A stretch of DNA of 64,000 bases from an uncultured Candidatus Saccharibacteria bacterium (GCA_964532005.1 CAZHER010000003.1:21399-85398); one strand, 5' to 3'; counted from the first letter of the stretch, positions 2,826 through 47,130 are shown. The notes: a model not told the origin generated them from the letters alone. Numbers and translations: made by a program.

Positions 2826-4343
2826 ATGATAGAGACAGGATCTAAAATTAGAACCCGATTTGCTCCAAGCCCCACAGGTCATATTCATGTTGGAAATTTC
2901 CGTACCGCATTGTTTGCATTCTTGTTTGCCCGCCACAATTCCGGAGTGAACGTCCTTCGTATTGAAGATACAGATCAAAACCGCCTCGTAGAGGGAGCGG
3001 TTGAAAGTTTACTTTCGGTTATGCGGAATATGGGAGTGGAGTTTGATGAAGGGTATCACTTAAAAGAAGACGGCAGTCTGGAAACCAGAGGTGAGTATGG
3101 GCCCTACGTTCAGTCGCAAAGGTTGGATATTTACCATAAGTACGTTCAAGATTTAATTGATGGAGGGTATGCTTACTACTGTTTTTGCAGTAGCGAGCGT
3201 TTAGATGAAATTCGCAAAGAACAGATTGCTTTAAAGAAGCCACCGATGTATGACAGGCATTGCCGGAATCTTGCTAAAGAAGAGGTTGGGTCAAAAATTG
3301 CTGAACTAAAATCCGAAGGCAAAAACCCTGTGGTGAGACAGGCAATACCAACAGAAGGACAGACCGTAGTGCACGACATTATTTACGGCGATATTACTTT
3401 TGACAATTCAATATTAGATGACCAAGTAATTTTGAAATCCGATGGTTACCCCACTTATCATTTAGCTGTTGTTGTGGACGATCATTTTATGGAAATTTCT
3501 CACGTTATCCGCGGTGAGGATTGGATTAATTCTACCCCAAAACACGTATTGCTGTATCAGGCTTTCGGTTGGCAACCGACAATATTTGCACATGTACCAA
3601 ATATTTTGAATCAGGACAAAACAAAGCTTTCAAAAAGACAGGGGGATGTAACTGTTGAGGACTTTCTTGCTAAAGGGTATCTAAAAGAAGCTTTGGTAAA
3701 TTTTGTCGCCTTTTTAGGTTGGAATCCAAAGACAGAACAAGAACTGTTTTCTATGGAAGACTTGATTCGAGAATTTGACCTCGCTAAAGTTAACCGCGCT
3801 GGTGCAGTATTCGACCAAAATAAACTTGATTGGATGAACGGCTTGTATATTAGAAGCAAGACCAACACAGAATTGGTGGACATGGTTCAGTCATTTTGGA
3901 AAAATAGCGGCGTAGATGTGGAAAAATATAGCAAGGAATATTTAGAGGGTATAGTATCGTTAGAAAAAGAGCGGATGAAAAAGCTATCCGATATCACAGA
4001 CAGTACCTCGTACTTTTTTAGTAGGCCAAAAGTAGCAAGTAATTTGCTTGTGTGGAGAAAAAGTAATTCTGAACAAACAGGCAAGGTATTGCAGGATCTT
4101 GTTCGGTTTTTCGATCAGACTGATGATACAGATTTTGTGAAAGAGACACTAGAGTTGAAATTAAAAGTTTTTATCGAAACTAACAACTATGACAATGGTA
4201 CAGTGCTGTGGCCTTTGAGATATGCTTTAACTGGTATGGAAAAAAGTCCTGGGCCTTTTGAAGTTGCCTCCGTGCTTCATTTAGGCTTAGGAAAACAAGA
4301 GATTATTGAACGTTTAAAACTAGCTGAGCAATCTTTGTCGTAA
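2826..4343 (+). CDS. gltX: glutamyl-tRNA synthetase
   Basis: Class I HIGH motif (PSPTGHIHVGNFRTALF) and KMSKS-like KLSKRQ; 505 aa. Confidence 0.9.
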   Translation: MIETGSKIRTRFAPSPTGHIHVGNFRTALFAFLFARHNSGVNVLRIEDTDQNRLVEGAVESLLSVMRNMGVEFDEGYHLKEDGSLETRGEYGPYVQSQRLDIYHKYVQDLIDGGYAYYCFCSSERLDEIRKEQIALKKPPMYDRHCRNLAKEEVGSKIAELKSEGKNPVVRQAIPTEGQTVVHDIIYGDITFDNSILDDQVILKSDGYPTYHLAVVVDDHFMEISHVIRGEDWINSTPKHVLLYQAFGWQPTIFAHVPNILNQDKTKLSKRQGDVTVEDFLAKGYLKEALVNFVAFLGWNPKTEQELFSMEDLIREFDLAKVNRAGAVFDQNKLDWMNGLYIRSKTNTELVDMVQSFWKNSGVDVEKYSKEYLEGIVSLEKERMKKLSDITDSTSYFFSRPKVASNLLVWRKSNSEQTGKVLQDLVRFFDQTDDTDFVKETLELKLKVFIETNNYDNGTVLWPLRYALTGMEKSPGPFEVASVLHLGLGKQEIIERLKLAEQSLS

Positions 4344-4386: not shown

Positions 4387-5673
4387 ATGAAGAAAAGCCA
4401 TAAAGAAATAAAAACAAAAATATTATATTCTGCCATCTCGGTCGGTCTTATATTTGGGGCCGGTTTTTTGGTTTTTAATTCAGTTTCAGCAGAAACAAGA
4501 CAACAATTACAAGACAAGCTCAGCAACCTTAACAGTAAAATAGGGGAGCTGACCCAAAATGTAAATCGGTTACGCCAACAGGGAGCCACTTTAAAAAACG
4601 AAATTGAGATATATGATTCTCAGATTGCTTCTACAGAATTGGAAATTCAAGCTAACAACACCAGGATTGCAGATATCACCTTGCAGATAGAAGATATCCA
4701 GGTACAGATAGAAAGGAGAGAAAAGGAAATTGCGGATAACAGGAAAATTTTAGCAGAGCTGGTGGTTCAACTGAATGAATTAGACAACAACACTTTTTTG
4801 ACCATGACTTTGGGAAGCGATAATTTTTCATCTTTCTTAGACCAAGTGCAATACACGAAAAGCGTAAATCAGCAGGTGTACGATCTGGTTCAGAAAATAA
4901 AAGATGTAAAACAAAAATTGGAAGATCAGCAAAAAGAACTGAAAGCCCAATTACAGCGCTTAAGCGAACTAAAAGAGGAATTAGAACAAAATCAAGCAGC
5001 TTTAGACGAGCAACGTTCCTCAAAGCAAACCTTGTTAAGTCAAACCCAGGGACAAGAGGGCAAGTATCAAAAAGCTTTAGCTGCCAGCCGCAATGAGCAA
5101 GCTGATGTTCTTCAGGAAATTCAAGGTTTGGATGCGAAAGCTCGAGGTAGCGGGAGCAAAAGTATTGCTGCAAGCAAAGGTGTGCTGGCTTGGCCGATGG
5201 AAGGGGTAATGACTCAAGGATACGGCAACACCGGCTTTACTTCTTTGGGCTATAATTTTCATAACGGTATAGATATTGCAGCTCCTGCTGGCAGGCCAAT
5301 TTACGTTCCGGCAGATGGTACGGTGGTTCGCTGTGCTGGCGGAGCTGCCGCATACGGCAACTGGTGTACTATCAAGCACACCATCGCTACTAAGTCTGGA
5401 AACAGACAAATAGTTACTTTGTTTGCCCATATGACAAAATATGTTTTATCCGGCGGACAAACTGTCAAACGAGGAGACCTGGTCGGTTATGAAGGGAATA
5501 CCGGGAACACCTCTCGTTTGTTGTACGGCCCTGACCGAGGGTATCATTTGCATTTTAGTGTTTTTGATGCAGACGGATTCACCATTACGCCAGGAAAATA
5601 TTCAGCAACTTATGGTCCTTATTTCGTGCCAAGCGGATATACGTATAATCCTTTAGACTTTTTAGGAAAATAA
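4387..5673 (+). CDS. secreted coiled-coil protein with C-terminal M23 (LytM) metalloendopeptidase domain (EnvC-like)
   Basis: Signal peptide, a long heptad-rich coiled coil, then M23 motifs HNGIDIAAP...GRPIYVPADGTV...YHLHFSV. Confidence 0.8.
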   Translation: MKKSHKEIKTKILYSAISVGLIFGAGFLVFNSVSAETRQQLQDKLSNLNSKIGELTQNVNRLRQQGATLKNEIEIYDSQIASTELEIQANNTRIADITLQIEDIQVQIERREKEIADNRKILAELVVQLNELDNNTFLTMTLGSDNFSSFLDQVQYTKSVNQQVYDLVQKIKDVKQKLEDQQKELKAQLQRLSELKEELEQNQAALDEQRSSKQTLLSQTQGQEGKYQKALAASRNEQADVLQEIQGLDAKARGSGSKSIAASKGVLAWPMEGVMTQGYGNTGFTSLGYNFHNGIDIAAPAGRPIYVPADGTVVRCAGGAAAYGNWCTIKHTIATKSGNRQIVTLFAHMTKYVLSGGQTVKRGDLVGYEGNTGNTSRLLYGPDRGYHLHFSVFDADGFTITPGKYSATYGPYFVPSGYTYNPLDFLGK

Positions 5674-5678
5674 CATAG

Positions 5679-6869
5679 ATGACACAAAAACAAAAAATTT
5701 ATAAGCTGGCTTTGGGAACAGCTTTGCTGTCTTTGCAGTTTTTGTTTTTTGTACCAGGTGCTGAGGCTCAAAACAACACCCCCACCAACAGCACTCCAGC
5801 AAATGAGCAAGGAAGATATGTAGGCAGGGGAGTGGAAGCTTCTATTCGCAGGCTTTTGTGTGCTCCTTCTGATTCATCAAGCGTACCAACCACCAATGGC
5901 GCAGTTGGTACCACAGTAGCCAAGGGAAGCAGCTCATCTCAAGACCTTTCCAACTGTATCAACAGGGGATATCGCTTTGCCCTAGCTTTCGGAGCAGTAG
6001 CTGCAGTATTCTTTTTTGTTCTTGCAGGGTATATGTACATGGTAGGTGGAGAAAATGGCAAACATGAAGCCAAGAACGTAATTATCTCTGTTATTGTTGG
6101 TTTTCTCATTATGTTATCTTCCTTTGTCCTGTTGCAACAAATCAATCCCACCTTAGTTTCCTTCCGCACCATTCAACCACCTCAGCTGGGGGGACAATAC
6201 TCACTCTTGCCTTCTTGTAGTGATTTAAAGCTTGGTATTGGTGAAGATTGTCAATTTGAGGATGGTTCGCCAGGAGTAAGCAACGGAAATGGCGGTGGCA
6301 TGACTCCACAAGGCGGGACAATGACTGGCAAAAGCGGCAAAGTGTGTAGTATGGGGAAAGACGAAGATTTGCAAACCCATGCTAAATGTAGCTTAGACTC
6401 GCGTTTGGAAAATGCATTTCAGGCTGCGGCTCGTGAGACAGGGATTGACGCTAATTTTATGAAAGCCATTGCTACAAAAGAGAGTCATTGGGATGAGTCC
6501 GCTATAAGTTGGACTAGATGCTGCAAGGGTCTTATGCAAATGTCAGACGCCACAGCAGCAAGATTTGGCTGTACTGGAAACGATTGGAAAACCAAAGGGG
6601 AAGTTATTATTCCTTGCGCAGCACGATATATGAAATATTTACGCGATAAATACGCTGGGAATGATTATGTTAAAATTGCTGCAGGTTATAACGCAGGTGA
6701 AGGCAGGTTGTCCCCAAGTCCGAATTGTCCTGGTATGGTAGTGGCTCTCTGCCCATTCAGAGACGCCGCCCAAACTGCTTGCATAGTGGGTGTAAATTCT
6801 TTAGAGCAGACGCGAAATTACGTTGTCACAGTGGCCAGATTTTATAATGAATATAAACAATGTCGATAA
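5679..6869 (+). CDS. T4SS-pilin-like (TrbC/VirB2-type two-TM hairpin) N-terminal module fused to SLT lytic transglycosylase domain
   Basis: Signal peptide; TM hairpin FALAFGAVAAVFFFVLAGYMYMVGGENGKHEAKNVIISVIVGFLIMLSSFVLL; C-terminal SLT signature KESHWDES...GLMQMSD...AGYNAG. Confidence 0.6.
   Translation: MTQKQKIYKLALGTALLSLQFLFFVPGAEAQNNTPTNSTPANEQGRYVGRGVEASIRRLLCAPSDSSSVPTTNGAVGTTVAKGSSSSQDLSNCINRGYRFALAFGAVAAVFFFVLAGYMYMVGGENGKHEAKNVIISVIVGFLIMLSSFVLLQQINPTLVSFRTIQPPQLGGQYSLLPSCSDLKLGIGEDCQFEDGSPGVSNGNGGGMTPQGGTMTGKSGKVCSMGKDEDLQTHAKCSLDSRLENAFQAAARETGIDANFMKAIATKESHWDESAISWTRCCKGLMQMSDATAARFGCTGNDWKTKGEVIIPCAARYMKYLRDKYAGNDYVKIAAGYNAGEGRLSPSPNCPGMVVALCPFRDAAQTACIVGVNSLEQTRNYVVTVARFYNEYKQCR
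5771..6193. repeat. copy 1 of an exact 423-bp direct duplication (second copy at 7544-7966, offset 1773 bp)
   Basis: Nucleotide strings compared block by block are identical. The identical 77-aa antisense ORFs at 5939-6172 and 7712-7945 confirm it. Boundaries are set by mismatches at 5770/7543 and 6194/7967. Confidence 0.85.
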
Positions 6870-7417
6870 TCCAACAATATAAGATATACTTTGTAGCAGG
6901 TTTTATCCTAATTTTGTTAGGGGTTGTGGCCGCAGTATATATATTTAAAGATGATTTAAAATTTGGAACCAGTTCAACAACGAATAAAATAAAAGTTGAA
7001 GGGAAACAGACAGAGGAGACAAAAAAATTATCCGAGCAGTTAAATTACCCTGGTAGCCCGCAAAAAGAGATTTCCGAAGACTGGATTTATTATAAAACTG
7101 ACCAGGGTTCAATCCGGATTAAGAATTTTTTCCCAAAAGACTATGACCCTTCAACCACCAAGCCATTTTTGATTACTGATAATGCTGATTATAAAATTGA
7201 ATATATAGCCGATGGAGACATGTATGAGGTGACTCTTAAGAGTACCAAAGGTAACCTGCAACAACTTCGTCAGAAAGCTGAGCTGGAGCTGGTAAATAAA
7301 TTTGGCACAAATAAATCAGATATTTGCCAATTACCAATTTTTGTTTATGAAGAAAATATAGATGCTTATAGGCCGAACAAATATAATCTAGGCCTGACAT
7401 TTTGTCCTTTAAATTAG
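6860..7417 (+). CDS. hypothetical membrane-anchored protein
   Basis: N-terminal TM (FVAGFILILLGVVAAVYIF); otherwise no motifs. Overlaps the upstream gene by 10 nt. Confidence 0.4.
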   Translation: MSIIQQYKIYFVAGFILILLGVVAAVYIFKDDLKFGTSSTTNKIKVEGKQTEETKKLSEQLNYPGSPQKEISEDWIYYKTDQGSIRIKNFFPKDYDPSTTKPFLITDNADYKIEYIADGDMYEVTLKSTKGNLQQLRQKAELELVNKFGTNKSDICQLPIFVYEENIDAYRPNKYNLGLTFCPLN

Positions 7418-7427
7418 TTAAATCAAA

Positions 7428-8672
7428 ATGATGACAAAGAATAAATTATTTAAAAGTTTGTTATTAGGAGTATTATTACTTGGGATATTATTCTCATATT
7501 CTTCAATAGCACAAGCAGACATAATTCCCAATCCCGTTCCTACAAACAACACCCCCACCAACAGCACTCCAGCAAATGAGCAAGGAAGATATGTAGGCAG
7601 GGGAGTGGAAGCTTCTATTCGCAGGCTTTTGTGTGCTCCTTCTGATTCATCAAGCGTACCAACCACCAATGGCGCAGTTGGTACCACAGTAGCCAAGGGA
7701 AGCAGCTCATCTCAAGACCTTTCCAACTGTATCAACAGGGGATATCGCTTTGCCCTAGCTTTCGGAGCAGTAGCTGCAGTATTCTTTTTTGTTCTTGCAG
7801 GGTATATGTACATGGTAGGTGGAGAAAATGGCAAACATGAAGCCAAGAACGTAATTATCTCTGTTATTGTTGGTTTTCTCATTATGTTATCTTCCTTTGT
7901 CCTGTTGCAACAAATCAATCCCACCTTAGTTTCCTTCCGCACCATTCAACCACCTCAGCTGGGGGGCAATTATACCATTGCTTCTTGCAAGGAGTTAGGT
8001 TTGGGAGATGACTGTGGTAGTCCCTCGGGAGATAATGGACCAGCTGATCCGAACGAAAACAGCCCTGTTGGGGATGGCCAAGAAAAAAATGGGGTAGTAT
8101 ATGGAGGGGGACGCTACAGGAATTTCCCTAGATTTGCCCAGACAGATCCACCATGGGCTCCAAAGAAGTATGGTAGGCAGTCCGGGTGCAGTACATATTA
8201 TGACGGAGGCTGTGGCCCTTCTGCATTTGCTGCCATTGCCCAGTATTATTACCAAAATGGAGGGGCTAAAATTTCACCCGACATCGCTTCTAAATATGGA
8301 AATCAAATTAATCCATTCACAGTCGGTGAATATGCAGTTGACAAGGGCCAAAGGGCTTGTCCCGGTGGTTCTTACGGGACGTTGGCTGCAACTGTAGCGC
8401 CAGCTTTTGGTTTAAAGGCGCAGCCAGCAGGATGGGGTACGATTGTTACAAATCTTGAAAAGGGCGTACCAGCTTGGGTTTCAATGGGAGGACTACCTTT
8501 TACTACGGGCGGACATTTTATTGTGTTAATTGCCAAAAAAGGAGATGAGATATACATTGTAGATAGTTATAAAAGAAATATTACTAGAGCAAAAGCTAGT
8601 ATAGTGCAAGCCCACTTCAAATATGGCTCTGTTGTCACATCGCCAACATTTACTCCACCAGTGCCAAATTAG
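7428..8672 (+). CDS. T4SS-pilin-like N-terminal module (identical to 5679-6869 over about 140 aa) fused to C39/papain-like cysteine peptidase domain
   Basis: Signal peptide, the shared TM hairpin, and a C-terminal Cys...His...Asp arrangement (GGCGPSAFAAIAQYY ... GGHFIVLIAKKGDEIYIVDSY). Confidence 0.6.
   Translation: MMTKNKLFKSLLLGVLLLGILFSYSSIAQADIIPNPVPTNNTPTNSTPANEQGRYVGRGVEASIRRLLCAPSDSSSVPTTNGAVGTTVAKGSSSSQDLSNCINRGYRFALAFGAVAAVFFFVLAGYMYMVGGENGKHEAKNVIISVIVGFLIMLSSFVLLQQINPTLVSFRTIQPPQLGGNYTIASCKELGLGDDCGSPSGDNGPADPNENSPVGDGQEKNGVVYGGGRYRNFPRFAQTDPPWAPKKYGRQSGCSTYYDGGCGPSAFAAIAQYYYQNGGAKISPDIASKYGNQINPFTVGEYAVDKGQRACPGGSYGTLAATVAPAFGLKAQPAGWGTIVTNLEKGVPAWVSMGGLPFTTGGHFIVLIAKKGDEIYIVDSYKRNITRAKASIVQAHFKYGSVVTSPTFTPPVPN
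7544..7966. repeat. copy 2 of the exact 423-bp direct duplication
   Basis: See copy 1 (5771-6193). Confidence 0.85.
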
Positions 8673-8685
8673 TCATGTTAAATAT

Positions 8686-10083
8686 ATGATGCATAAAATA
8701 ACAATATTATTATTCTCAGCGTTTATGTTTATAGGGCTCGGATTATCCCCGGTCACTGCGCTGGCCCAAGCCCCAGGTAGCCAGGGGCTGGTTCCTTGCG
8801 GTAGTTTTTCTGACAATCCCTGCCAGTTGGTAGATCTTTTCAATTTAGTCATAACTATTACCAACTTCTTAATCGGCATGGGTGGCATCGTAGCAGTGGT
8901 GGTGATAATTTATGCAGGTTGGTCTCTTGTACTTGCAGCGGGAAATGTTGAAGCTGTTACCGTGGCAAAAAAATTACTTGTTAATGCTTTTATCGGGTTC
9001 TTTTTTGTAATGATTGCTTTCGCCGGAGCTAATTTTCTCATTTTTGGAGCTCGCGGCTTTATAGTCGGCGAGCCAACCCAAGGCGGAACCCCAGTAGGTA
9101 TTTTTGTTTGCCCAATAGATTACTTGCTCGGTTATGCTGAGTGTGGCAATTCAGGTGGCGGGGGAGGTAATACAACTAACAACACCCCTGCAAATACACC
9201 TACCAATAATACAAATACCCCTACGAACACTCCCAATTTACCTTTTCAAATCCCTCCAGGCAGAGGAATAGGTGAAACAGCAATGTCATTAGAAGTCATT
9301 CCTAAAGAGAGAGATTCATGTCCAATAGGTCAAACTGCTTGGGTAGAAAATTTTTTTTTGATCAAAACAGCTTTCGCTCAAACACCACCATCTGACTGTG
9401 GGAGTGTTGCCGACGGATATTTAGCCGGTCCAAGGCATGATACTTTTCCTGATGATGTCATAATCCAACAAGATCTTAACATTCAGTTAGGGAGCCCTCG
9501 AAATAAAACTTGCAGTTCGGTATCGCGCGCTGGTTGTGGCATGATTTCAATGATCCACGCAATAAAGTTTATGCAGAAAAAGGGATATGTTTACGCAGGA
9601 TCTTGGACAAATGCATGGCACAATGAAGGCAACTTAAATCCTATATCTCGAATCACTGATCCAACTTGGTGGCCAAGGATATACCAAAATAACACAGGCT
9701 ATTTTACTTGTGCAAACAATGGAGCTGTTTATCATAGTGCTCCATCAGATATAATGAAAGATGGACAAATACTTAGAAATGTAACAGCATACCAGTCTAC
9801 TGCTTCTGGTGGTCCTGCTTTATTGGAACAAGTAAAGTTAGCTCTAGAAAGAAATGGGGTAGCAATAGCTCTTGTAAAAGGACCCCCGTTTAATACAGGA
9901 AATGCTGGGAATCATTTTATTCTTATATACAGACAATACTATGCTCAGTCAGATAATAATAAATTGTGGTTTGCTGTTGCCGATTCAAACAAGTATGCTC
10001 AAATTGGTCAGGTAAGATATGATGTTTTACAGAATCATCTTACTGGAGTAACAGTTATTTACCCTACAAGCTCGACTCCTTAG
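8686..10083 (+). CDS. T4SS-pilin-like protein (LVPCG...PC...NFL motif plus two-TM hairpin) with Asn/Thr/Pro linker and C-terminal C39/papain-like peptidase domain
   Basis: Signal peptide MMHKITILLFSAFMFIGLGLSPVTALAQA; QGLVPCGSFSDNPCQLVDLFNLVITITNFLIGMGG; linker GNTTNNTPANTPTNNTNTPTNTP; catalytic-like AGCGMISMIHAI ... GNHFILIY ... VADS. The ORF track starts it at 8623, but the ATG at 8686 precedes the signal peptide and is the more likely start. Confidence 0.6.
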   Translation: MMHKITILLFSAFMFIGLGLSPVTALAQAPGSQGLVPCGSFSDNPCQLVDLFNLVITITNFLIGMGGIVAVVVIIYAGWSLVLAAGNVEAVTVAKKLLVNAFIGFFFVMIAFAGANFLIFGARGFIVGEPTQGGTPVGIFVCPIDYLLGYAECGNSGGGGGNTTNNTPANTPTNNTNTPTNTPNLPFQIPPGRGIGETAMSLEVIPKERDSCPIGQTAWVENFFLIKTAFAQTPPSDCGSVADGYLAGPRHDTFPDDVIIQQDLNIQLGSPRNKTCSSVSRAGCGMISMIHAIKFMQKKGYVYAGSWTNAWHNEGNLNPISRITDPTWWPRIYQNNTGYFTCANNGAVYHSAPSDIMKDGQILRNVTAYQSTASGGPALLEQVKLALERNGVAIALVKGPPFNTGNAGNHFILIYRQYYAQSDNNKLWFAVADSNKYAQIGQVRYDVLQNHLTGVTVIYPTSSTP

Positions 10084-10629
10084 TTGAAAATAATAGAAAA
10101 GAGCCTCGAATTTCGTGTTCGAGGCTCTTTTGCTTGTATGGACGATCTTTGATTCTAGCTCGTCCAAAATTTCTTCCAGTCGGTTTTGCCAAAAGCGTTG
10201 GTTTTTTTCGCCTTCGACATGCTGCAGTCGAAATTCGCGAAAATATTTCCGTTCGCCAGCAGGGTCGAGACCGAAATCGACTGTGCCATCTGTCTGATCG
10301 TCGGCGATTACCTCGCCTTCTTTTGTCTCGATTGTCAGAGACGTATCCGAGACTAATGAAAAGGTAACTGTGCCGCCGCTTTTCAGGTGGCACTTTATGC
10401 TTTCCATTTTTTCCCCGTCTTTTTCAATGTCAACAAGGGAGCAGATCCCATCGCTAGGACCCATAAACATTGAAACAACCAGCAGCTTTTCCTGCCGTTG
10501 AACCTTTTGGAGGTTCGCCGGCAGGTCAGGCGTTTTGGTGTTATTTGACGGTCCTCGCTGACCGACTTCTAGACACGCGACCATAATGACGAATACAATC
10601 ATCCATAAGAATTGCCTTAAATTTTGCAT
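10027..10629 (-). CDS. hypothetical secreted or lipoprotein (GC-rich ORF); 3' end uncertain
   Basis: N-terminal signal (MIVFVIMVAC). The ORF reads through the terminator hairpin and overlaps the convergent gene by 57 nt, so the true C-terminus is doubtful. Confidence 0.35.
   Translation of the reverse strand: MQNLRQFLWMIVFVIMVACLEVGQRGPSNNTKTPDLPANLQKVQRQEKLLVVSMFMGPSDGICSLVDIEKDGEKMESIKCHLKSGGTVTFSLVSDTSLTIETKEGEVIADDQTDGTVDFGLDPAGERKYFREFRLQHVEGEKNQRFWQNRLEEILDELESKIVHTSKRASNTKFEALFYYFQLRSRACRVNNCYSSKMIL
10097..10131. terminator. rho-independent terminator hairpin (gagcctcgaa / ttcgaggctc) with T-run, downstream of the + gene ending at 10083
   Basis: Perfect 10-bp GC-rich stem, 7-nt loop, then TTTT. 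It lies inside the 3' end of the minus ORF 10027-10629. Confidence 0.6.
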
Positions 10630-11595: not shown

Positions 11596-11643
11596 GTCGT
11601 ACCGTATCAAACAAGCAAATTAGCAAAGGTCCGATCGAAGATT

Positions 11644-11680
11644 CCGGTATTTCCAATTCTAGGGTACCGGTTTCTTTTTA
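11644..11680 (+). terminator. possible terminator (ccggta...taccgg stem, T-run)
   Basis: 6-bp palindromic stem with 14-nt loop followed by tttctttttattt; weak stem. Confidence 0.3.
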
Positions 11681-12001
11681 TTTATGACGATCGTCTAGAA
11701 TTAAAATATATAGATAGAATTAGCTATTGCCAAAAAGACAGTATAAATGATAATTTTAGTAATATATTTTTTATAACAATAGTAAAGGAGTCTAGAAATA
11801 GAGAACAGTTATTAGTATTAATTTGTATTGGTTAGCATTTAGAATTTTTTTTTCACAATTAATAGTTAGCTAGTTGTTTAATAAAGTCTCATTATATTAT
11901 GTCGTATAACATACATTATCAGACGTAAGAAACATTGAGTTTTGTGGGTTTTGGCCTATATTCCCCAGTTTAAATAGGTGGTTCCCTGCTATACTTTAAA
12001 T

Positions 12002-12628
12002 ATGAATTTGCAAAATAGAAATATACGAGTTCTTATTCGCAAATTGGCTCGCAAACCTACACTGGCCGGAGTATTGGTATTGGTTTTGTTGCTTGGCTTA
12101 GTGTGGTGGCAAGGCCAGGGGCCCGTTCCAGATGAAGACGCTCCCCTGCTTGAGGGCCAAGAAAAAAATATTGAAAAAGAATTTGTACAAGATGGTATTT
12201 ATTTTGTAGAAGAAGTCATTGACGGCGACACTATATATATTGAAACAGATGATGGAGATAGTGAAAGCGTGAGGCTTATTGGTATTAATACTCCAGAGAC
12301 AGTTGATCCTAGAACTGAGGTTGAATGTTTTGGTAAGGAGGCTAGTATAAAGACAACTGAGTTGTTGCAAGATCAAGAAGTACGTATTGAATTTGATCCG
12401 GCCAAAGGTGACCGTGACCAATTCGGTAGGTTGTTGCGCTATGTCTTTTTGCCTGGCCAGACAAACCAGTCCGAACAGAACATTAACAAGCTACTCATTG
12501 AACAAGGTTTTGCTTATGAAAATTCTTACGGCGTGCCATACAAATTTGAAAAGGAGTTCAAGCAAGCACAGATTCAAGCAAAAAATTCTCAGGCAGGCTT
12601 ATGGGCACCAGGCGTATGTGCCAAGTAG
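12002..12628 (+). CDS. secreted thermonuclease (staphylococcal-nuclease-like, SNase fold) with N-terminal TM anchor
   Basis: SNase motifs RLIGINTPET, DQFGRLLRYVF and AGLW. The ORF track starts it at an upstream GTG (11978); ATG 12002 is used here. Confidence 0.7.
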   Translation: MNLQNRNIRVLIRKLARKPTLAGVLVLVLLLGLVWWQGQGPVPDEDAPLLEGQEKNIEKEFVQDGIYFVEEVIDGDTIYIETDDGDSESVRLIGINTPETVDPRTEVECFGKEASIKTTELLQDQEVRIEFDPAKGDRDQFGRLLRYVFLPGQTNQSEQNINKLLIEQGFAYENSYGVPYKFEKEFKQAQIQAKNSQAGLWAPGVCAK

Positions 12629-38882: not shown

Positions 38883-41846
38883 TTAATGCAGATCACCAAA
38901 ACTACATCTATGTTGCTTGGCGAGTTTATGCTCTTTGGCAAATAGGTCGTATTTCACAGTATGTTGTATTTTTAAAGCTGTTTCTAACAACCCCGATTTA
39001 AGTTCCTCTAGTTCTTTATTGCTGGCTAACGGCACCGATAGAGTTTCATTACCATCCAAGAACCAATAGCAAAGGGATTCTACAGGCATCTTGAAATATT
39101 CTTGCGCCGCCCACTGGTATACTCTTAACTGATCCAAATCGCTCCCCTTTTTAGTACTAGGCGCCTTTCCCGTTTTGTAGTCAATAATAATTAGTCCCTT
39201 TTGTCCTTTGTCCGCACGGTCAATTTTTCCACTAAAAGTTATGAGATTACCTTTCTCCCCTAGGTCCATTTGGAAAGATTTTTCTATGAGTTCGAGTTCA
39301 GGCTGTTCTGTAATAGTTCTTTCATAGAAAATTTTGAGAAAGTTTTTTCCTTTGTTACGGAAAGCTTCCTTTTGAGGTTTGTCATCATACCATTCATCAA
39401 TCCAATATTTACCATAAAGCTCCTCTAGGGTTTTTAAAGTCGGTAGGATTATTTTATTTTCCTTAGAAAACAGATCTTGTTGGCGGGAAATTTTGGCTTC
39501 ATGGTACAGCTCCATAAAATGCTGAAAAGTTGAATGAACGGTTATACCAAAACTTAACTGTGGTGCCCCTTTCATAGGAATTTTGAGATACGATCGATAT
39601 TTGTATTCAAGTGGACAGGTAATGAACTGATTTATTGCACTGTATGAGAACCTGGTCGGGATTTGCTTGTAAACGACTTTTTTTGGCTTAGTACTAGAAG
39701 AGTTAAATACAACTTTACCAGTTGCTGTAGTAATTTTGTCGCTTGGTACAAGGTTGGTTTCTTCAAGAAATAGTGAAGGTTTTTTTAATTTTACACCGCC
39801 GTAATCTCTACCCCAAGAAAAATAAAGATTGGTTTTTGCACGAGTCATGGCAACATAGAACAGTCTCCTTTCTTCCTGTAAATGGAAATCGCCCTCAGGC
39901 AGTATGTCTTTGATTAAACTTTCAGGAATTTCTATAGTATCTTTTTTACCTCTAGTGGGAAATCGTTGGTCCACCATATTTATAATGAACACATTTTCGA
40001 ACTCCAGTCCTTTAGCTGCGTGTACGGTCATAATCTTTAATGATTCAGGTCCGGTGTTCGGATCATATTTAATTGGGCCTTCTTCACCGGCTTTGATTTC
40101 CAGATCTAAGTGATTAACAAAACCTCTTAATGTGTGGTCGTCGTTCTCTTGGCTGTACAATTCTATTCTTTTATAAAATTGATCCAAAAATTCACGTTGT
40201 TCAGCATTTTCCAATGTTTCTTCCTCAAGCATTTCTGCTACACCCAGGTCCCCAACAATGTTCACAAACAGTTCAATTGCCGAAATAGAGCCAGTTTGCC
40301 CACTGTGTTTTTGTATCAAGGCAAGAAGCGATTGAATTTTAGTTTCACTTTCTTTTGTGAGTACTGAAACGGCTTCCCTATGCTTTAACGATTCATAAAG
40401 TGAAAGCGTGTGTTTGGCTGAATATTGTGTCAATTGAGCTAAATCATTTTTATCTACAGCGAATTTTGGAAATTGTAGGACGCGGAACAGGCTTTGTGAT
40501 TCATGGTAATTGTCTAGTAATTTCATATAATGTATCAAATCGGATACAATCCGTTTTTTGTACAGACCCTTGTTAGCCATGAAATTATAAGGAATACCTG
40601 CAGAATCCAAGCGTGGCAACACTTCTTCTGCTGCTGAGTTAGCACGGATTAGTATTGCAAAATCGTTCCAGGTTAATTTATCTTGATTTGATTTCAGTTC
40701 CAGAATTTTTTTTATTACCAGATCCAGTTCTTCACTAAGATCTTTGCCTTCTAAAACCTCAATTTTTCCTGTTTTTTTACTAGATTTGTTTTTCAGCCGT
40801 TTGTCTATACCCAGCTCTGTCTCAAGTCTATTTGGGTTGTTTTTCTGGATAAAGTTATACGACAGATCCAAAATAGATTGGCTACTGCGGTAATTTTCTG
40901 TTAGGGTAATCTCCTCAGTTTGTGGAAAATCTTTTTTTAGTTTGAGTATGTTTGAAACTGAAGCCCCACGAAATTTGTATATTGACTGGTCGTCATCGCC
41001 AACAACCACCAATTGCGGGACATGTTCACCACCTCCGGACTCAGTCAGTAATTTAATTAGTTCATATTGAGCATAGTTTGTATCCTGGAATTCATCAATT
41101 AGTACATATTTGAATTTTCTGCGGTATCCTGCCAGTATATTTGGTCTACGCACAAAGAGTTTTATTGCATAGTTTATCAGATCTCCAAAATCTAAATATT
41201 CATTATCTAGGAGCATTTTTTGATAAAGGTGAAAGCTTTCCGCTACTTCTTTTGCTCTGCTAGCTTCAGTGGATTGCTTAATATTTTCTGGGTTTGGTAG
41301 TAGTTCGGCGCTTCCTGTATTTAGTCTAAGTCCTTCGGCGTATTTCAAATAATCTTCCGGATCAATTAGTTCATCTTTGCACTTGCTGAAATGGTCCAAT
41401 AAAGCATCTATAAATTTGTTTGGAGAACCTATGGGTTTGTAGTAGTCGAGCTTAAATTTGTCGAAATTTTTATGGATCAAAATCCATTGCTGTACATTGT
41501 CCAAAAGCTTAAATTCATTGGAAATACCAATATCTAGGCCATGTTGCTTTAGTAGTCGTTCGCAAAAGCTATGGAAGGTAGAGATCCATAAATCATAGTT
41601 TCCCAGTGGCAAGAGTTGGTCAACTCTTTCTTCCATTTCCCCCGCTGCTTTTTCTGTAAATGTAAGAGCTAGAATTTCGTCAGGCTTGGCCAGGCCTTGC
41701 TCTATGAGGTAAGCAATTCTGCGAGTAATCACGGTAGTTTTTCCTGTTCCCGCGCCCGCTACAATTAATAAAGGTCCGCCAGTATGAGTGACGGCCTTTA
41801 GCTGCTGTTCATTAAGGTTTTCTAGCAAATGACCCATATCTGCCAA
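38883..41846 (-). CDS. UvrD/PcrA-family SF1 helicase fused to C-terminal PD-(D/E)xK (RecB/Cas4-like) nuclease domain
   Basis: Walker A AGAGTGKTT, helicase motifs through about 650 aa, and a C-terminal IDRADKGQKGLIIIDYKTGK nuclease motif; 987 aa. Confidence 0.8.
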   Translation of the reverse strand: MADMGHLLENLNEQQLKAVTHTGGPLLIVAGAGTGKTTVITRRIAYLIEQGLAKPDEILALTFTEKAAGEMEERVDQLLPLGNYDLWISTFHSFCERLLKQHGLDIGISNEFKLLDNVQQWILIHKNFDKFKLDYYKPIGSPNKFIDALLDHFSKCKDELIDPEDYLKYAEGLRLNTGSAELLPNPENIKQSTEASRAKEVAESFHLYQKMLLDNEYLDFGDLINYAIKLFVRRPNILAGYRRKFKYVLIDEFQDTNYAQYELIKLLTESGGGEHVPQLVVVGDDDQSIYKFRGASVSNILKLKKDFPQTEEITLTENYRSSQSILDLSYNFIQKNNPNRLETELGIDKRLKNKSSKKTGKIEVLEGKDLSEELDLVIKKILELKSNQDKLTWNDFAILIRANSAAEEVLPRLDSAGIPYNFMANKGLYKKRIVSDLIHYMKLLDNYHESQSLFRVLQFPKFAVDKNDLAQLTQYSAKHTLSLYESLKHREAVSVLTKESETKIQSLLALIQKHSGQTGSISAIELFVNIVGDLGVAEMLEEETLENAEQREFLDQFYKRIELYSQENDDHTLRGFVNHLDLEIKAGEEGPIKYDPNTGPESLKIMTVHAAKGLEFENVFIINMVDQRFPTRGKKDTIEIPESLIKDILPEGDFHLQEERRLFYVAMTRAKTNLYFSWGRDYGGVKLKKPSLFLEETNLVPSDKITTATGKVVFNSSSTKPKKVVYKQIPTRFSYSAINQFITCPLEYKYRSYLKIPMKGAPQLSFGITVHSTFQHFMELYHEAKISRQQDLFSKENKIILPTLKTLEELYGKYWIDEWYDDKPQKEAFRNKGKNFLKIFYERTITEQPELELIEKSFQMDLGEKGNLITFSGKIDRADKGQKGLIIIDYKTGKAPSTKKGSDLDQLRVYQWAAQEYFKMPVESLCYWFLDGNETLSVPLASNKELEELKSGLLETALKIQHTVKYDLFAKEHKLAKQHRCSFGDLH

Positions 41847-46408: not shown

Positions 46409-46485
46409 TGGCGGACTGAACGGGACTCGAACCCGCGACCTTCCGCGTGACAGGCGGACGCTCTAACCAACTGAGCTACCAGTCC
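46409..46485 (-). tRNA. tRNA-Asp (GTC), CCA encoded
   Basis: Cloverleaf GGACUGG...anticodon loop cuGUCac...TΨC GGUUCGAGUCC...CCAGUCCGCCA. Confidence 0.85.
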
Positions 46486-46516
46486 ATATTTTAGAAACTT
46501 CTCAACAATGTGTTAT

Positions 46517-46593
46517 TGGTACCGGCGGCAGGAATTGAACCTGCGACCTAAGGCTTATGAGTCCTTCGCTCTAACCAACTGAGCTACGCCGGC
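46517..46593 (-). tRNA. tRNA-Met (CAT), elongator type (G1-C72; tRNA-Ile2/lysidine not excluded), CCA encoded
   Basis: GCCGGCGUAGCUCAGUUGGUUAGAGC...CUCAUAA...GGUUCAAUUCC...CGCCGGUACCA. Confidence 0.8.
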
Positions 46594-46664
46594 TCGTATA
46601 AATTCCTAACCGAGTCAGATTTCATTTACTATAGCACGAAGCCTTTCCTAAATAAAAGCTGGCT

Positions 46665-46740
46665 TGGTTGCGGGACCCGGATTCGAACCGGGAACCTCAA
46701 GGTTATGAGCCTTGCGAGCTGCCAATTGCTCTATCCCGCG
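46665..46740 (-). tRNA. initiator tRNA-fMet (CAT), CCA encoded
   Basis: C1•A72 mismatch; the whole sequence closely parallels E. coli tRNAfMet (CGCGGG..AGCUCG..CUCAUAACC..CCCGCAACCA). Confidence 0.85.
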
Positions 46741-46917: not shown

Positions 46918-47130
46918 TTAGCGCTTTTTCTTAGCAGCGGTCTTGCGACGTGCTGGGCGCTTCTTAGCAGCTGGCTTTTTTGCAGCAGTGCGCTTCTTAG
47001 CAGCTGGCTTGCGAGCAGCGGTCTTTCGCTTTGCAGGCTTGCGAGCAGGCTTCTTAGCAGCAGTGCGCTTCTTAGCAGCTGGCTTTTTTGCAGCAGGCTT
47101 TCGCTTTGCTACTTTTCTTTTTGTTGCCAT
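46918..47130 (-). CDS. histone H1-like / Hc1-AlgP-like basic nucleoid-associated protein composed of KPAAKK-type repeats
   Basis: 70-aa protein MATKRKVAKRKPAAKKPAAKKRTAAKKPARKPAKRKTAARKPAAKK...; GGGAGA SD; terminator downstream; the underlying DNA is tandemly repetitive. Confidence 0.6.
   Translation of the reverse strand: MATKRKVAKRKPAAKKPAAKKRTAAKKPARKPAKRKTAARKPAAKKRTAAKKPAAKKRPARRKTAAKKKR

Follow-up and report, generated by a model that had tools for sequence, protein, structure and literature searches.

A probable case of module-restricted gene conversion between the pilin-like anchors of two predicted wall hydrolases in a Candidatus Saccharibacteria bacterium

Two paralogous genes, here called A and B, lie within a 64,000-nt stretch of DNA from an uncultured Candidatus Saccharibacteria bacterium (GCA_964532005.1 CAZHER010000003.1:21399-85398; hereafter the window, meaning the whole stretch at its full length) and share an identical 423-nt repeat inside their coding regions. 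The best account of this identity is, in all probability, module-restricted concerted evolution by gene conversion between old paralogs. The repeat would represent the common N-terminal anchor module of two adjacent paralogs, a VirB2/T4SS_pilin-like hairpin following a Sec signal peptide, with homologous recombination between the tandem copies keeping the anchor modules identical. The conversion tract would be limited on its 5' side by the diverged signal peptides and on its 3' side by the gene-specific linker ahead of the non-homologous catalytic domains (heads), and over longer times the head on a conserved anchor may be swapped, such that relatives carry different heads at one slot. The mechanism is presumably recombination of the RecA type. 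Read in this way, the locus gives a clear illustration of gene conversion, a well-known process, in a little-studied gene family.

The repeat and the module it encodes

An ungapped comparison of window positions 5771-6193 with 7544-7966 (offset 1773 nt) finds 423 of 423 bases to be the same, with a mismatch at both edges and flanking sequence that matches at chance level (9-21 matches per 60 nt). A whole-window scan found no further repeat longer than 66 nt anywhere in the 64 kb, which together with the full identity excludes chance, and the duplication in the window is confirmed as real. A preliminary description of this DNA had claimed exact identity over 423 bp with mismatches at the edges, and had raised the question of mismatches on full alignment; the claim is borne out, with zero mismatches within the 423 nt. 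It is safe to regard the copies as at least ~99% identical, the figure of 100.0% being partly a product of assembly. Both copies are in frame in their genes, beginning at a third codon position (codon 31 of gene A and codon 39 of gene B), and encode the same 140 amino acids (aa), NNTPTN...IQPPQLGG.

The module comprises a Thr/Ser/Asn-rich N-terminal region with two conserved Cys residues, a first transmembrane (TM) helix, a short, basic loop (GGENGKHEAKN), a second TM helix, and the motif INPTLVSFRTIQPPQLGG. An AlphaFold2 model from 30 family sequences reveals a helical hairpin formed by module residues 55-91 and 93-124 (predicted local distance difference test scores of 76-89), with the Thr/Ser/Asn-rich segment before the hairpin poorly predicted. 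The repeat ends just past these helices, in agreement with the ~140-aa module ending in a TM hairpin that had been described earlier. Genes A and B are both predicted to encode a cleavable Sec-type signal peptide ahead of the module, each showing by inspection a basic n-region, a hydrophobic h-region, and an AxA-type site (...VPGAEA before Q in A, and ...SIAQA before D in B). In the topology that we infer, the signal peptide is cleaved and both termini lie outside the membrane, with the basic loop inside and the head outside on a flexible Gly-rich linker; the basic character of the loop fits such an arrangement of the termini and catalytic head.

Pfam assigns an SLT domain to the head of gene A (E=9.6e-14, aa 246-344) and a Peptidase_C39_2 domain to that of gene B (E=2.3e-6, aa 232-381), with both proteins also matching T4SS_pilin (E=2.3e-4 for A and 5e-4 for B). 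The signal peptide of gene A shares 28% aa identity with that of gene B, and the earlier view of two pilin-fusion genes with a common anchor, differing signal peptides, and different C-terminal enzymatic domains is therefore upheld. The products are putative membrane-tethered wall hydrolases, with either the cell's own wall or that of a host as their possible substrate. Saccharibacteria and other bacteria of the candidate phyla radiation (CPR) live attached to host bacteria.

Comparisons were made with related loci, of which L002 and L003 are Candidatus Saccharibacteria metagenome-assembled genome loci from a scan of species-representative genomes, and L004, L006, L011, and L033-L037 stem from metagenome contigs and exact-protein look-ups. 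Orthologs of gene A lie at L002 9974-11203 (62% aa identity) and L003 7493-8722 (L3_A; 70%), the signal peptide of the latter being 42% identical to that of gene A. Beyond these loci, an exhaustive HMMER search recovered 3319 cluster representatives of the module family at E<=1e-3; HMMER was required for this, with a word-indexed protein search using the module returning one relative, and the products of genes A and B had no exact match in the contig index. Most metagenome matches to the module are contigs of 1-4 kb.

The module is N-terminal in the best 151 relatives (median start residue 30), which carry a median C-terminal extension of 195 aa. T4SS_pilin (PF18895) is matched by 83 of 126 representatives at E<=1e-3 (best 9.8e-28) and TrbC by six, with the heads among these 126 including SLT (14), C39_2 (5), M23 (5), M15 (4), M15_4 (4), Amidase_2 (3), SLT_3 (3), GDSL (2), VanY (2), and CHAP (1). 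Many family heads have no Pfam match; for those of L004, L005, L006 (both genes), L012, L2_3, and a third window gene, C, none was found even at E<=0.1, and the label LAS/VanY-like rests on motifs read by eye (CHxxGxxxD...HxH in the family consensus, and SDHGKGIALDF in L004). The variety of hydrolase heads across the 126 representatives indicates that the predicted anchor and wall-hydrolase architecture is widespread, with ten or more kinds of peptidoglycan hydrolase apparently using the pilin-like hairpin as their N-terminal anchor. In P0017 (612 aa, four modules), P0055, P0080, P0102, and P0128, a single polypeptide holds a tandem series of three or four pilin-like modules.

Module and flanks within and between genomes

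Modules are far more alike within a genome than between genomes. In codon alignments, nucleotide identity reaches 100% between the two window copies and 98.6-99.3% among three copies in L002, whereas modules of different genomes share 61-69% of their aa (63-68% in the codon alignment) and 65-68% of their nucleotides, falling to 43-50% at third codon positions. Paralogs are hence closer within a genome than orthologs between genomes, synonymous sites included, with the module grouping by genome, and the signal peptides, linkers, and heads grouping by position and orthology. The SLT heads of gene A (W_A), L3_A, and L2_2 are 67-76% identical in aa, with the linker of W_A sharing 64-73% with those of L2_2 and L3_A, and gene B (W_B) shares 98% of its head and 91% of its linker with its ortholog in L034 (L34_B). 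Within the window the linkers of A and B share 45% aa, and non-module parts overall are 18-45% identical to their own genomic neighbours.

Synonymous substitutions date the exchange relative to these splits. The number of synonymous substitutions per site (dS) in the module is 0 between W_A and W_B, and 0.92 between W_B and L34_B, with the dS of the head near saturation, which places the conversion later than the split from L034. As the gene in the B slot, with its own linker and head, predates the splits, a single recent duplication is ruled out as the source of the pair. Selection alone was considered as the cause of the identity and rejected, since identity at synonymous sites requires recombination. 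Across the TM half of the module, W_A and L3_A differ with a proportion of synonymous differences (pS) of 0.72 and a nonsynonymous divergence (dN) of 0.12, W_A and L5 with a pS of 0.82 and a dN of 0.13, and more distant orthologs are 56-62% identical. The head of gene B (window 7980-8672 against L034 1100-1808) shows its 98% aa identity at about 82% nucleotide identity (pS 0.73, dN 0.015), with such conservation at near-saturated synonymous sites pointing to very strong purifying selection on this head.

The same pattern recurs in the window, L002, L003, and L037, and more weakly in L011, L036, and L006. L002 carries three module-bearing genes (with GDSL, SLT, and unassigned heads) in one 681-kb contig, with copies 1 and 2 exact over ~467 nt and copy 3 differing near the tract edges alone (two mismatches by the 5' end and one by the 3' end). 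In L003 and L037, positions 7593-7647 and 10280-10334 recur at 9385-9439 and 11620-11674 respectively, with each contig stopping exactly 55 nt into the second exact copy; an assembly graph with k=55 is expected to break in this way where a genomic repeat exceeds k. Homogenisation appears older or partial in L011, L036, and L006, with module pairs identical at 86-90%, 78-84%, and about 80% of nucleotides, respectively.

A capacity for such recombination is plausible, with an AddA-like UvrD helicase bearing a C-terminal PD-(D/E)XK nuclease domain encoded in the window (38883-41846, minus strand), and with Saccharibacteria reported to be naturally competent and to integrate DNA by homologous recombination (PMC10633639). 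The AddA-like protein is plausibly part of the end-processing machinery of homologous recombination, and as such relevant to the capacity for gene conversion.

Several points weigh against this account, or against the pilin assignment on which its description of the anchor draws. Conversion is deduced by comparing sequences, and the identity of 100.0% is partly built in by de Bruijn assembly, where the path runs through the same node for both copies; a sister short-read assembly of the same strain shows the repeat as one graph node, so the assembler may have erased a few real differences between the copies. The basis is six or seven genomes with at least two modules, mostly fragmentary metagenome contigs, and two of them, L006 and L036, lack recent conversion (synonymous sites in L006 being near saturation), suggesting that homogenisation is episodic, not universal. 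Additionally, proteins A and B score 21.6 and 20.5 bits against T4SS_pilin (PF18895), under the Pfam gathering score of 26.6, and no type IV secretion system (T4SS) gene was found among the window open reading frames (ORFs) tested. Six of the seven window ORFs of at least 500 aa encode GltX, PyrG, GyrB, the AddA-like protein, LepA, and MurJ, with the array adjoining gltX and the gene of an M23 peptidase. Foldseek found no match of the module model to the PDB at E<=0.001, and a profile search of PDB sequences gave no pilin match, short helical hairpins being poorly discriminated by such tools. Proteins A and B (396 and 414 aa, with enzymatic heads of ~200 aa) are too large for small stand-alone pilin subunits, and the locus can be placed in the T4SS pilin family at most as an atypical case, large, fused, and away from T4SS genes in the window.

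As to why anchors should match, the TM half of the L006 module pair (92% aa identity, pS 0.72) has a dN of 0.06, compared with 0.12 between orthologs at similar pS, which hints at selection for matched anchors within a cell, although the contrast amounts to ~10 against ~20 nonsynonymous differences, too small a sample for proof. A speculative and rather unlikely extension is that the VirB2-like hairpins let modules of different hydrolases co-assemble in a shared membrane oligomer or pilus-like filament, with identity kept for matching. If true, such co-assembly would display mixed wall-cutting heads (glycosidase, peptidases, and esterase) on the host's or the cell's own wall, with concerted evolution preserving assembly compatibility and head shuffling retuning the enzyme set. 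The array of L006, a more distant relative, also contains an ORF (11673-12407) that appears by eye to be DsbA/thioredoxin-like (CPFC motif), placed after a 169-aa gene and ahead of the second pilin fusion; if read correctly, it fits the conserved Cys pairs in the module (C61/C93 in gene A) and in the linkers, which suggest disulfide bonds.

Head turnover and competing explanations

The clearest replacement of a head is seen between L004 and L002, which are collinear at 88.7% nucleotide identity over 3.9 kb, encompassing gltX, the M23 gene, the signal peptide, the module, and the gene-specific linker GKYSLPSCADAGLGENCVD, with complete divergence beyond. At this slot the head of L002 is of the GDSL type, and the heads of L004 and L037 contain the VanY-like motif SDHGKGIALDF (that of L004 being recognised by eye, with no Pfam match). 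As the breakpoint between L002 and L004 lies beyond the module, in gene-specific sequence, an assembler shortcut through the repeat does not explain it. The B slot likewise varies, with a C39-like head in the window as in L034, and a different, unassigned head in L002 (L2_3) and L006. Anchors can be homogenised to DNA identity within a genome while heads exchange between close relatives.

Such exchange invites comparison with a system of programmed variation akin to polymorphic toxins, in which the anchor would be a delivery module for exchangeable toxin heads, the repeat a switching handle, and the 185-aa protein encoded between genes A and B an immunity factor. Peptidoglycan hydrolases are a common class of antibacterial effector, and in this family the N-terminal part does stay constant where close relatives carry different C-terminal domains at one slot. 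Two direct repeats spaced by 1.35 kb would furthermore be expected to give deletion or duplication of the loop between them, with a matching hybrid present in a public assembly, and a cultured Saccharibacterium needs the pilin arrays of its T4SS cluster for epibiotic growth (PMC10633639). However, no regular immunity gene accompanies the heads, with the small gene following the SLT gene alone and gene B being followed directly by gene C, and no known immunity protein or inhibitor resembles the 185-aa protein in fold. Nor are there orphan or silent cassettes in the window, where a six-frame hidden Markov model (HMM) scan yields three full genes, each beginning with an ATG and a signal peptide of its own. 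The arrangement also departs from that of pilE/pilS, with both copies being complete genes in one co-directional cluster and the pilin-like part invariant. A programmed system is accordingly improbable, and the replacement of heads is evolutionary shuffling and not a programmed cassette system. The cassette-type variation proposed in the preliminary description therefore survives in the evolutionary sense alone, through heads that differ at one slot (L002 against L004, and W_B against L2_3), and its likeness to a polymorphic toxin or antigenic variation system falls away, as both genes are complete with their own start and signal peptide and the pilin part is constant.

A very recent segmental duplication confined to this lineage, in which the module was copied before another head and no exchange is ongoing, would also yield zero differences over 423 nt, as expected of a very young duplicate, and the duplicate in L011, which includes the signal peptide at 86-95% identity, looks like plain duplication. 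In the window, however, this explanation has to contend with the age of the slot: a pilin-fusion gene follows a gene of ~180 aa in L002, L003, L006, and L034, lineages at a dS of at least 0.9 from the window, and the linker and head of W_B remain orthologous to those of L34_B across such a divergence. L034 also has, in its B slot, a gene whose module is orthologous to that of W_B, which speaks against the duplication. Furthermore, within-genome identity arose independently in L002 (in three copies), L003, and L037, and the overwriting of an old, existing paralog is by definition gene conversion. Recent duplication is thus most improbable, and of the two causes of identity offered at the outset, very recent duplication or ongoing gene conversion, ongoing or recent conversion stands and simple recent duplication does not, the B slot being shared at such divergence.

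The last alternative, in which the assembler threaded one node twice or joined strains and the real genome holds one copy, draws on L033 (ERZ15185866 NODE_58; 98,291 nt, coverage 1.32), a contig from an assembly of the same strain that matches the window at 100% identity to either side of a single repeat copy and encodes the hybrid P0153 (L033 10001-11221; within the 90% cluster of gene B), consisting of signal peptide A, the module, and head B. Against this, L035 (NODE_60027; 1588 nt, coverage 1.10), a contig from the same sample, equals window 6068-7655 exactly, spanning 126 nt of the repeat, the SLT head, the 185-aa gene, signal peptide B, and 112 nt of the repeat. L033 and L035 together demonstrate that all four junctions exist, and no single linear path other than the window layout takes in every one of them; this layout agrees with the conserved gene order in L002, L003, and L006, L002 moreover having three copies inside its one long contig. 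A single-copy genome is scarcely credible, and the hybrid P0153 is most simply an assembly collapse in the other assembly. The suspicion of collapse raised in the preliminary description was hence apt for the sister assembly of this strain, and the window keeps its resolved two-copy layout. P0153 is exactly the product that recombination between the repeat copies would give; its use as proof of a real deletion recombinant was rejected once the loop contig L035 turned up in the same sample, and the coverage ratio of L035 to L033, 0.83, is compatible with a real deletion subpopulation. Exact intragenic repeats of this kind break or collapse short-read assemblies, leaving contigs that end 55 nt into a copy and a chimeric gene in public protein sets, and surveys by full-length proteins will miss or misjudge the anchor-head architecture.

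Genomic setting and known systems

The array, the operon of which is predicted from sequence to encode extracytoplasmic peptidoglycan hydrolases, runs in the order gltX, M23 peptidase, A, the 185-aa gene, B, and C, tightly spaced and in one direction (Table 1), with the start of the 185-aa gene overlapping the end of gene A by 10 nt. The order gltX, M23, pilin fusions is kept in L002, L003, L006, L033, L036, and L037, and in all of these related loci the pilin-fusion array directly follows the M23 gene. The M23 protein itself is PcsB-like, and the hairpin directly after gene C is probably the end of the operon. Gene C, the start of which was set from the sequence and the L033 gene call, falls outside the homogenised set, matching the module HMM at no better than E=2e-4. 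Its head (~290 aa) bears Cys...His motifs that resemble a C39-like peptidase, and its ortholog in L002 (12839-13423) is a headless pilin of 194 aa, 52% identical in aa over the pilin part, with a T4SS_pilin score of 33.2 bits, over the gathering score.

The rest of the window is housekeeping, encoding GyrB, the AddA-like helicase-nuclease, LepA, MurJ, PyrG, PheS, a class-V aminotransferase, and five tRNAs. A short, imperfect tandem repeat of GC-rich 33/75-nt units (46936-47109 and 46409-46740, minus strand) lies within a minus-strand region, adjoining the clustered genes of tRNA-Asp and two tRNA-Met, and it is those tRNAs that the repeat finder listed as two tRNA-like repeats.

Table 1. Coordinates of the array and its parts, in window positions.
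Feature	Position	Strand	Remarks
gltX	2826-4343	+	First gene of the tight co-directional cluster
Coiled-coil and Peptidase_M23 protein, PcsB-like	4387-5673	+	Pfam M23 E=5.7e-20; weak CC_PcsB match
Gene A, 396 aa	5679-6869	+	Signal peptide, two-helix anchor, Cys-containing Gly-rich linker, SLT head
Gene A signal peptide	5679-5770	+	MTQKQKIYKLALGTALLSLQFLFFVPGAEA, site before Q; outside repeat; by direct sequence inspection
Repeat copy 1 (putative conversion tract in gene A)	5771-6193	+	Identical to 7544-7966
Gene A linker	6194-6259	+	Begins QYSLLPSCSDLKLGIGEDC; related to gene B linker, diverged; marks 3' end of the putative conversion tract
Membrane-anchored protein, 185 aa	6860-7417	+	In loop between repeat copies
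Gene B, 414 aa	7428-8672	+	Other signal peptide, same anchor, diverged linker, C39-like cysteine peptidase head
Repeat copy 2 (putative conversion tract in gene B)	7544-7966	+	Identical to 5771-6193
Gene C, 465 aa	8686-10083	+	Divergent second type of T4SS_pilin-like hairpin, Cys/His head; T4SS_pilin E=3.9e-5
Terminator-like hairpin	10097-10131		14 pairs; directly after gene C

The nearest relatives of the anchor are the VirB2-like pilin arrays of Patescibacteria/CPR (PF18895 T4SS_pilin and PF04956 TrbC), of which 441 have been described, with 2-11 genes each, especially in Saccharimonadia, and a within-array aa identity averaging 25% and reaching at most 54% (PMC12102498). A series of pilin genes within the T4SS cluster of S. 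epibionticum is essential (PMC10633639), and the TM7x array consists of small signal-peptide proteins related to VirB2 (10.1101/258137). The window shares with these arrays Sec signal peptides, a two-helix hairpin, a tandem arrangement that sometimes includes a non-pilin gene, and an abundance in Saccharibacteria. In contrast, the CPR arrays consist of small pilins near virB4 that vary within an array, whereas the hairpin in the window anchors enzymes of 400 aa beside gltX and the M23 gene with up to 100% DNA identity; hydrolase fusions and domain-level homogenisation are not mentioned in the CPR VirB2 array literature surveyed. With VirB2-like pilin arrays reported to be essential in a cultured Saccharibacterium, the locus provides a concrete, testable handle on how these reduced genomes organise and diversify wall-active enzymes.

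The hydrolases of Gram-positive conjugation, cited in PMC12102498 as VirB1-like TraG of pIP501 and PrgK of pCF10, have an N-terminal membrane anchor with an extracytoplasmic SLT and/or cysteine-peptidase domain in a monoderm-type envelope, as is predicted here. The anchor in the window differs, being a VirB2-like hairpin behind a cleavable signal peptide, with one head per gene and outside a T4SS cluster.

Polymorphic toxins, such as CdiA-CT of contact-dependent inhibition (CDI), Rhs, and LXG of the type VII secretion system (T7SS), similarly join a conserved N-terminal module to interchangeable C-terminal enzymatic domains, with breakpoints after a conserved junction. Unlike these, the window is without orphan cassettes, a regular immunity gene, or demonstrated coupling to secretion, and its heads belong to ordinary wall-remodelling families. 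Gene conversion between pilin-related sequences in one genome is also a feature of Neisseria pilE/pilS, where silent partial copies give variable segments to one expressed gene; conversion in the window would instead remove diversity from the pilin part, with all copies complete.

Gene conversion between bacterial paralogs is a textbook process, as in tufA/tufB and the rRNA operons. Such concerted paralogs share with the window genes a closeness within the genome that includes synonymous sites, and its recurrence in independent lineages, and have been surveyed elsewhere (PMC6053082). What sets the window apart from them is that conversion would be confined to one domain of multidomain genes, the catalytic parts of which are non-homologous and distinct.

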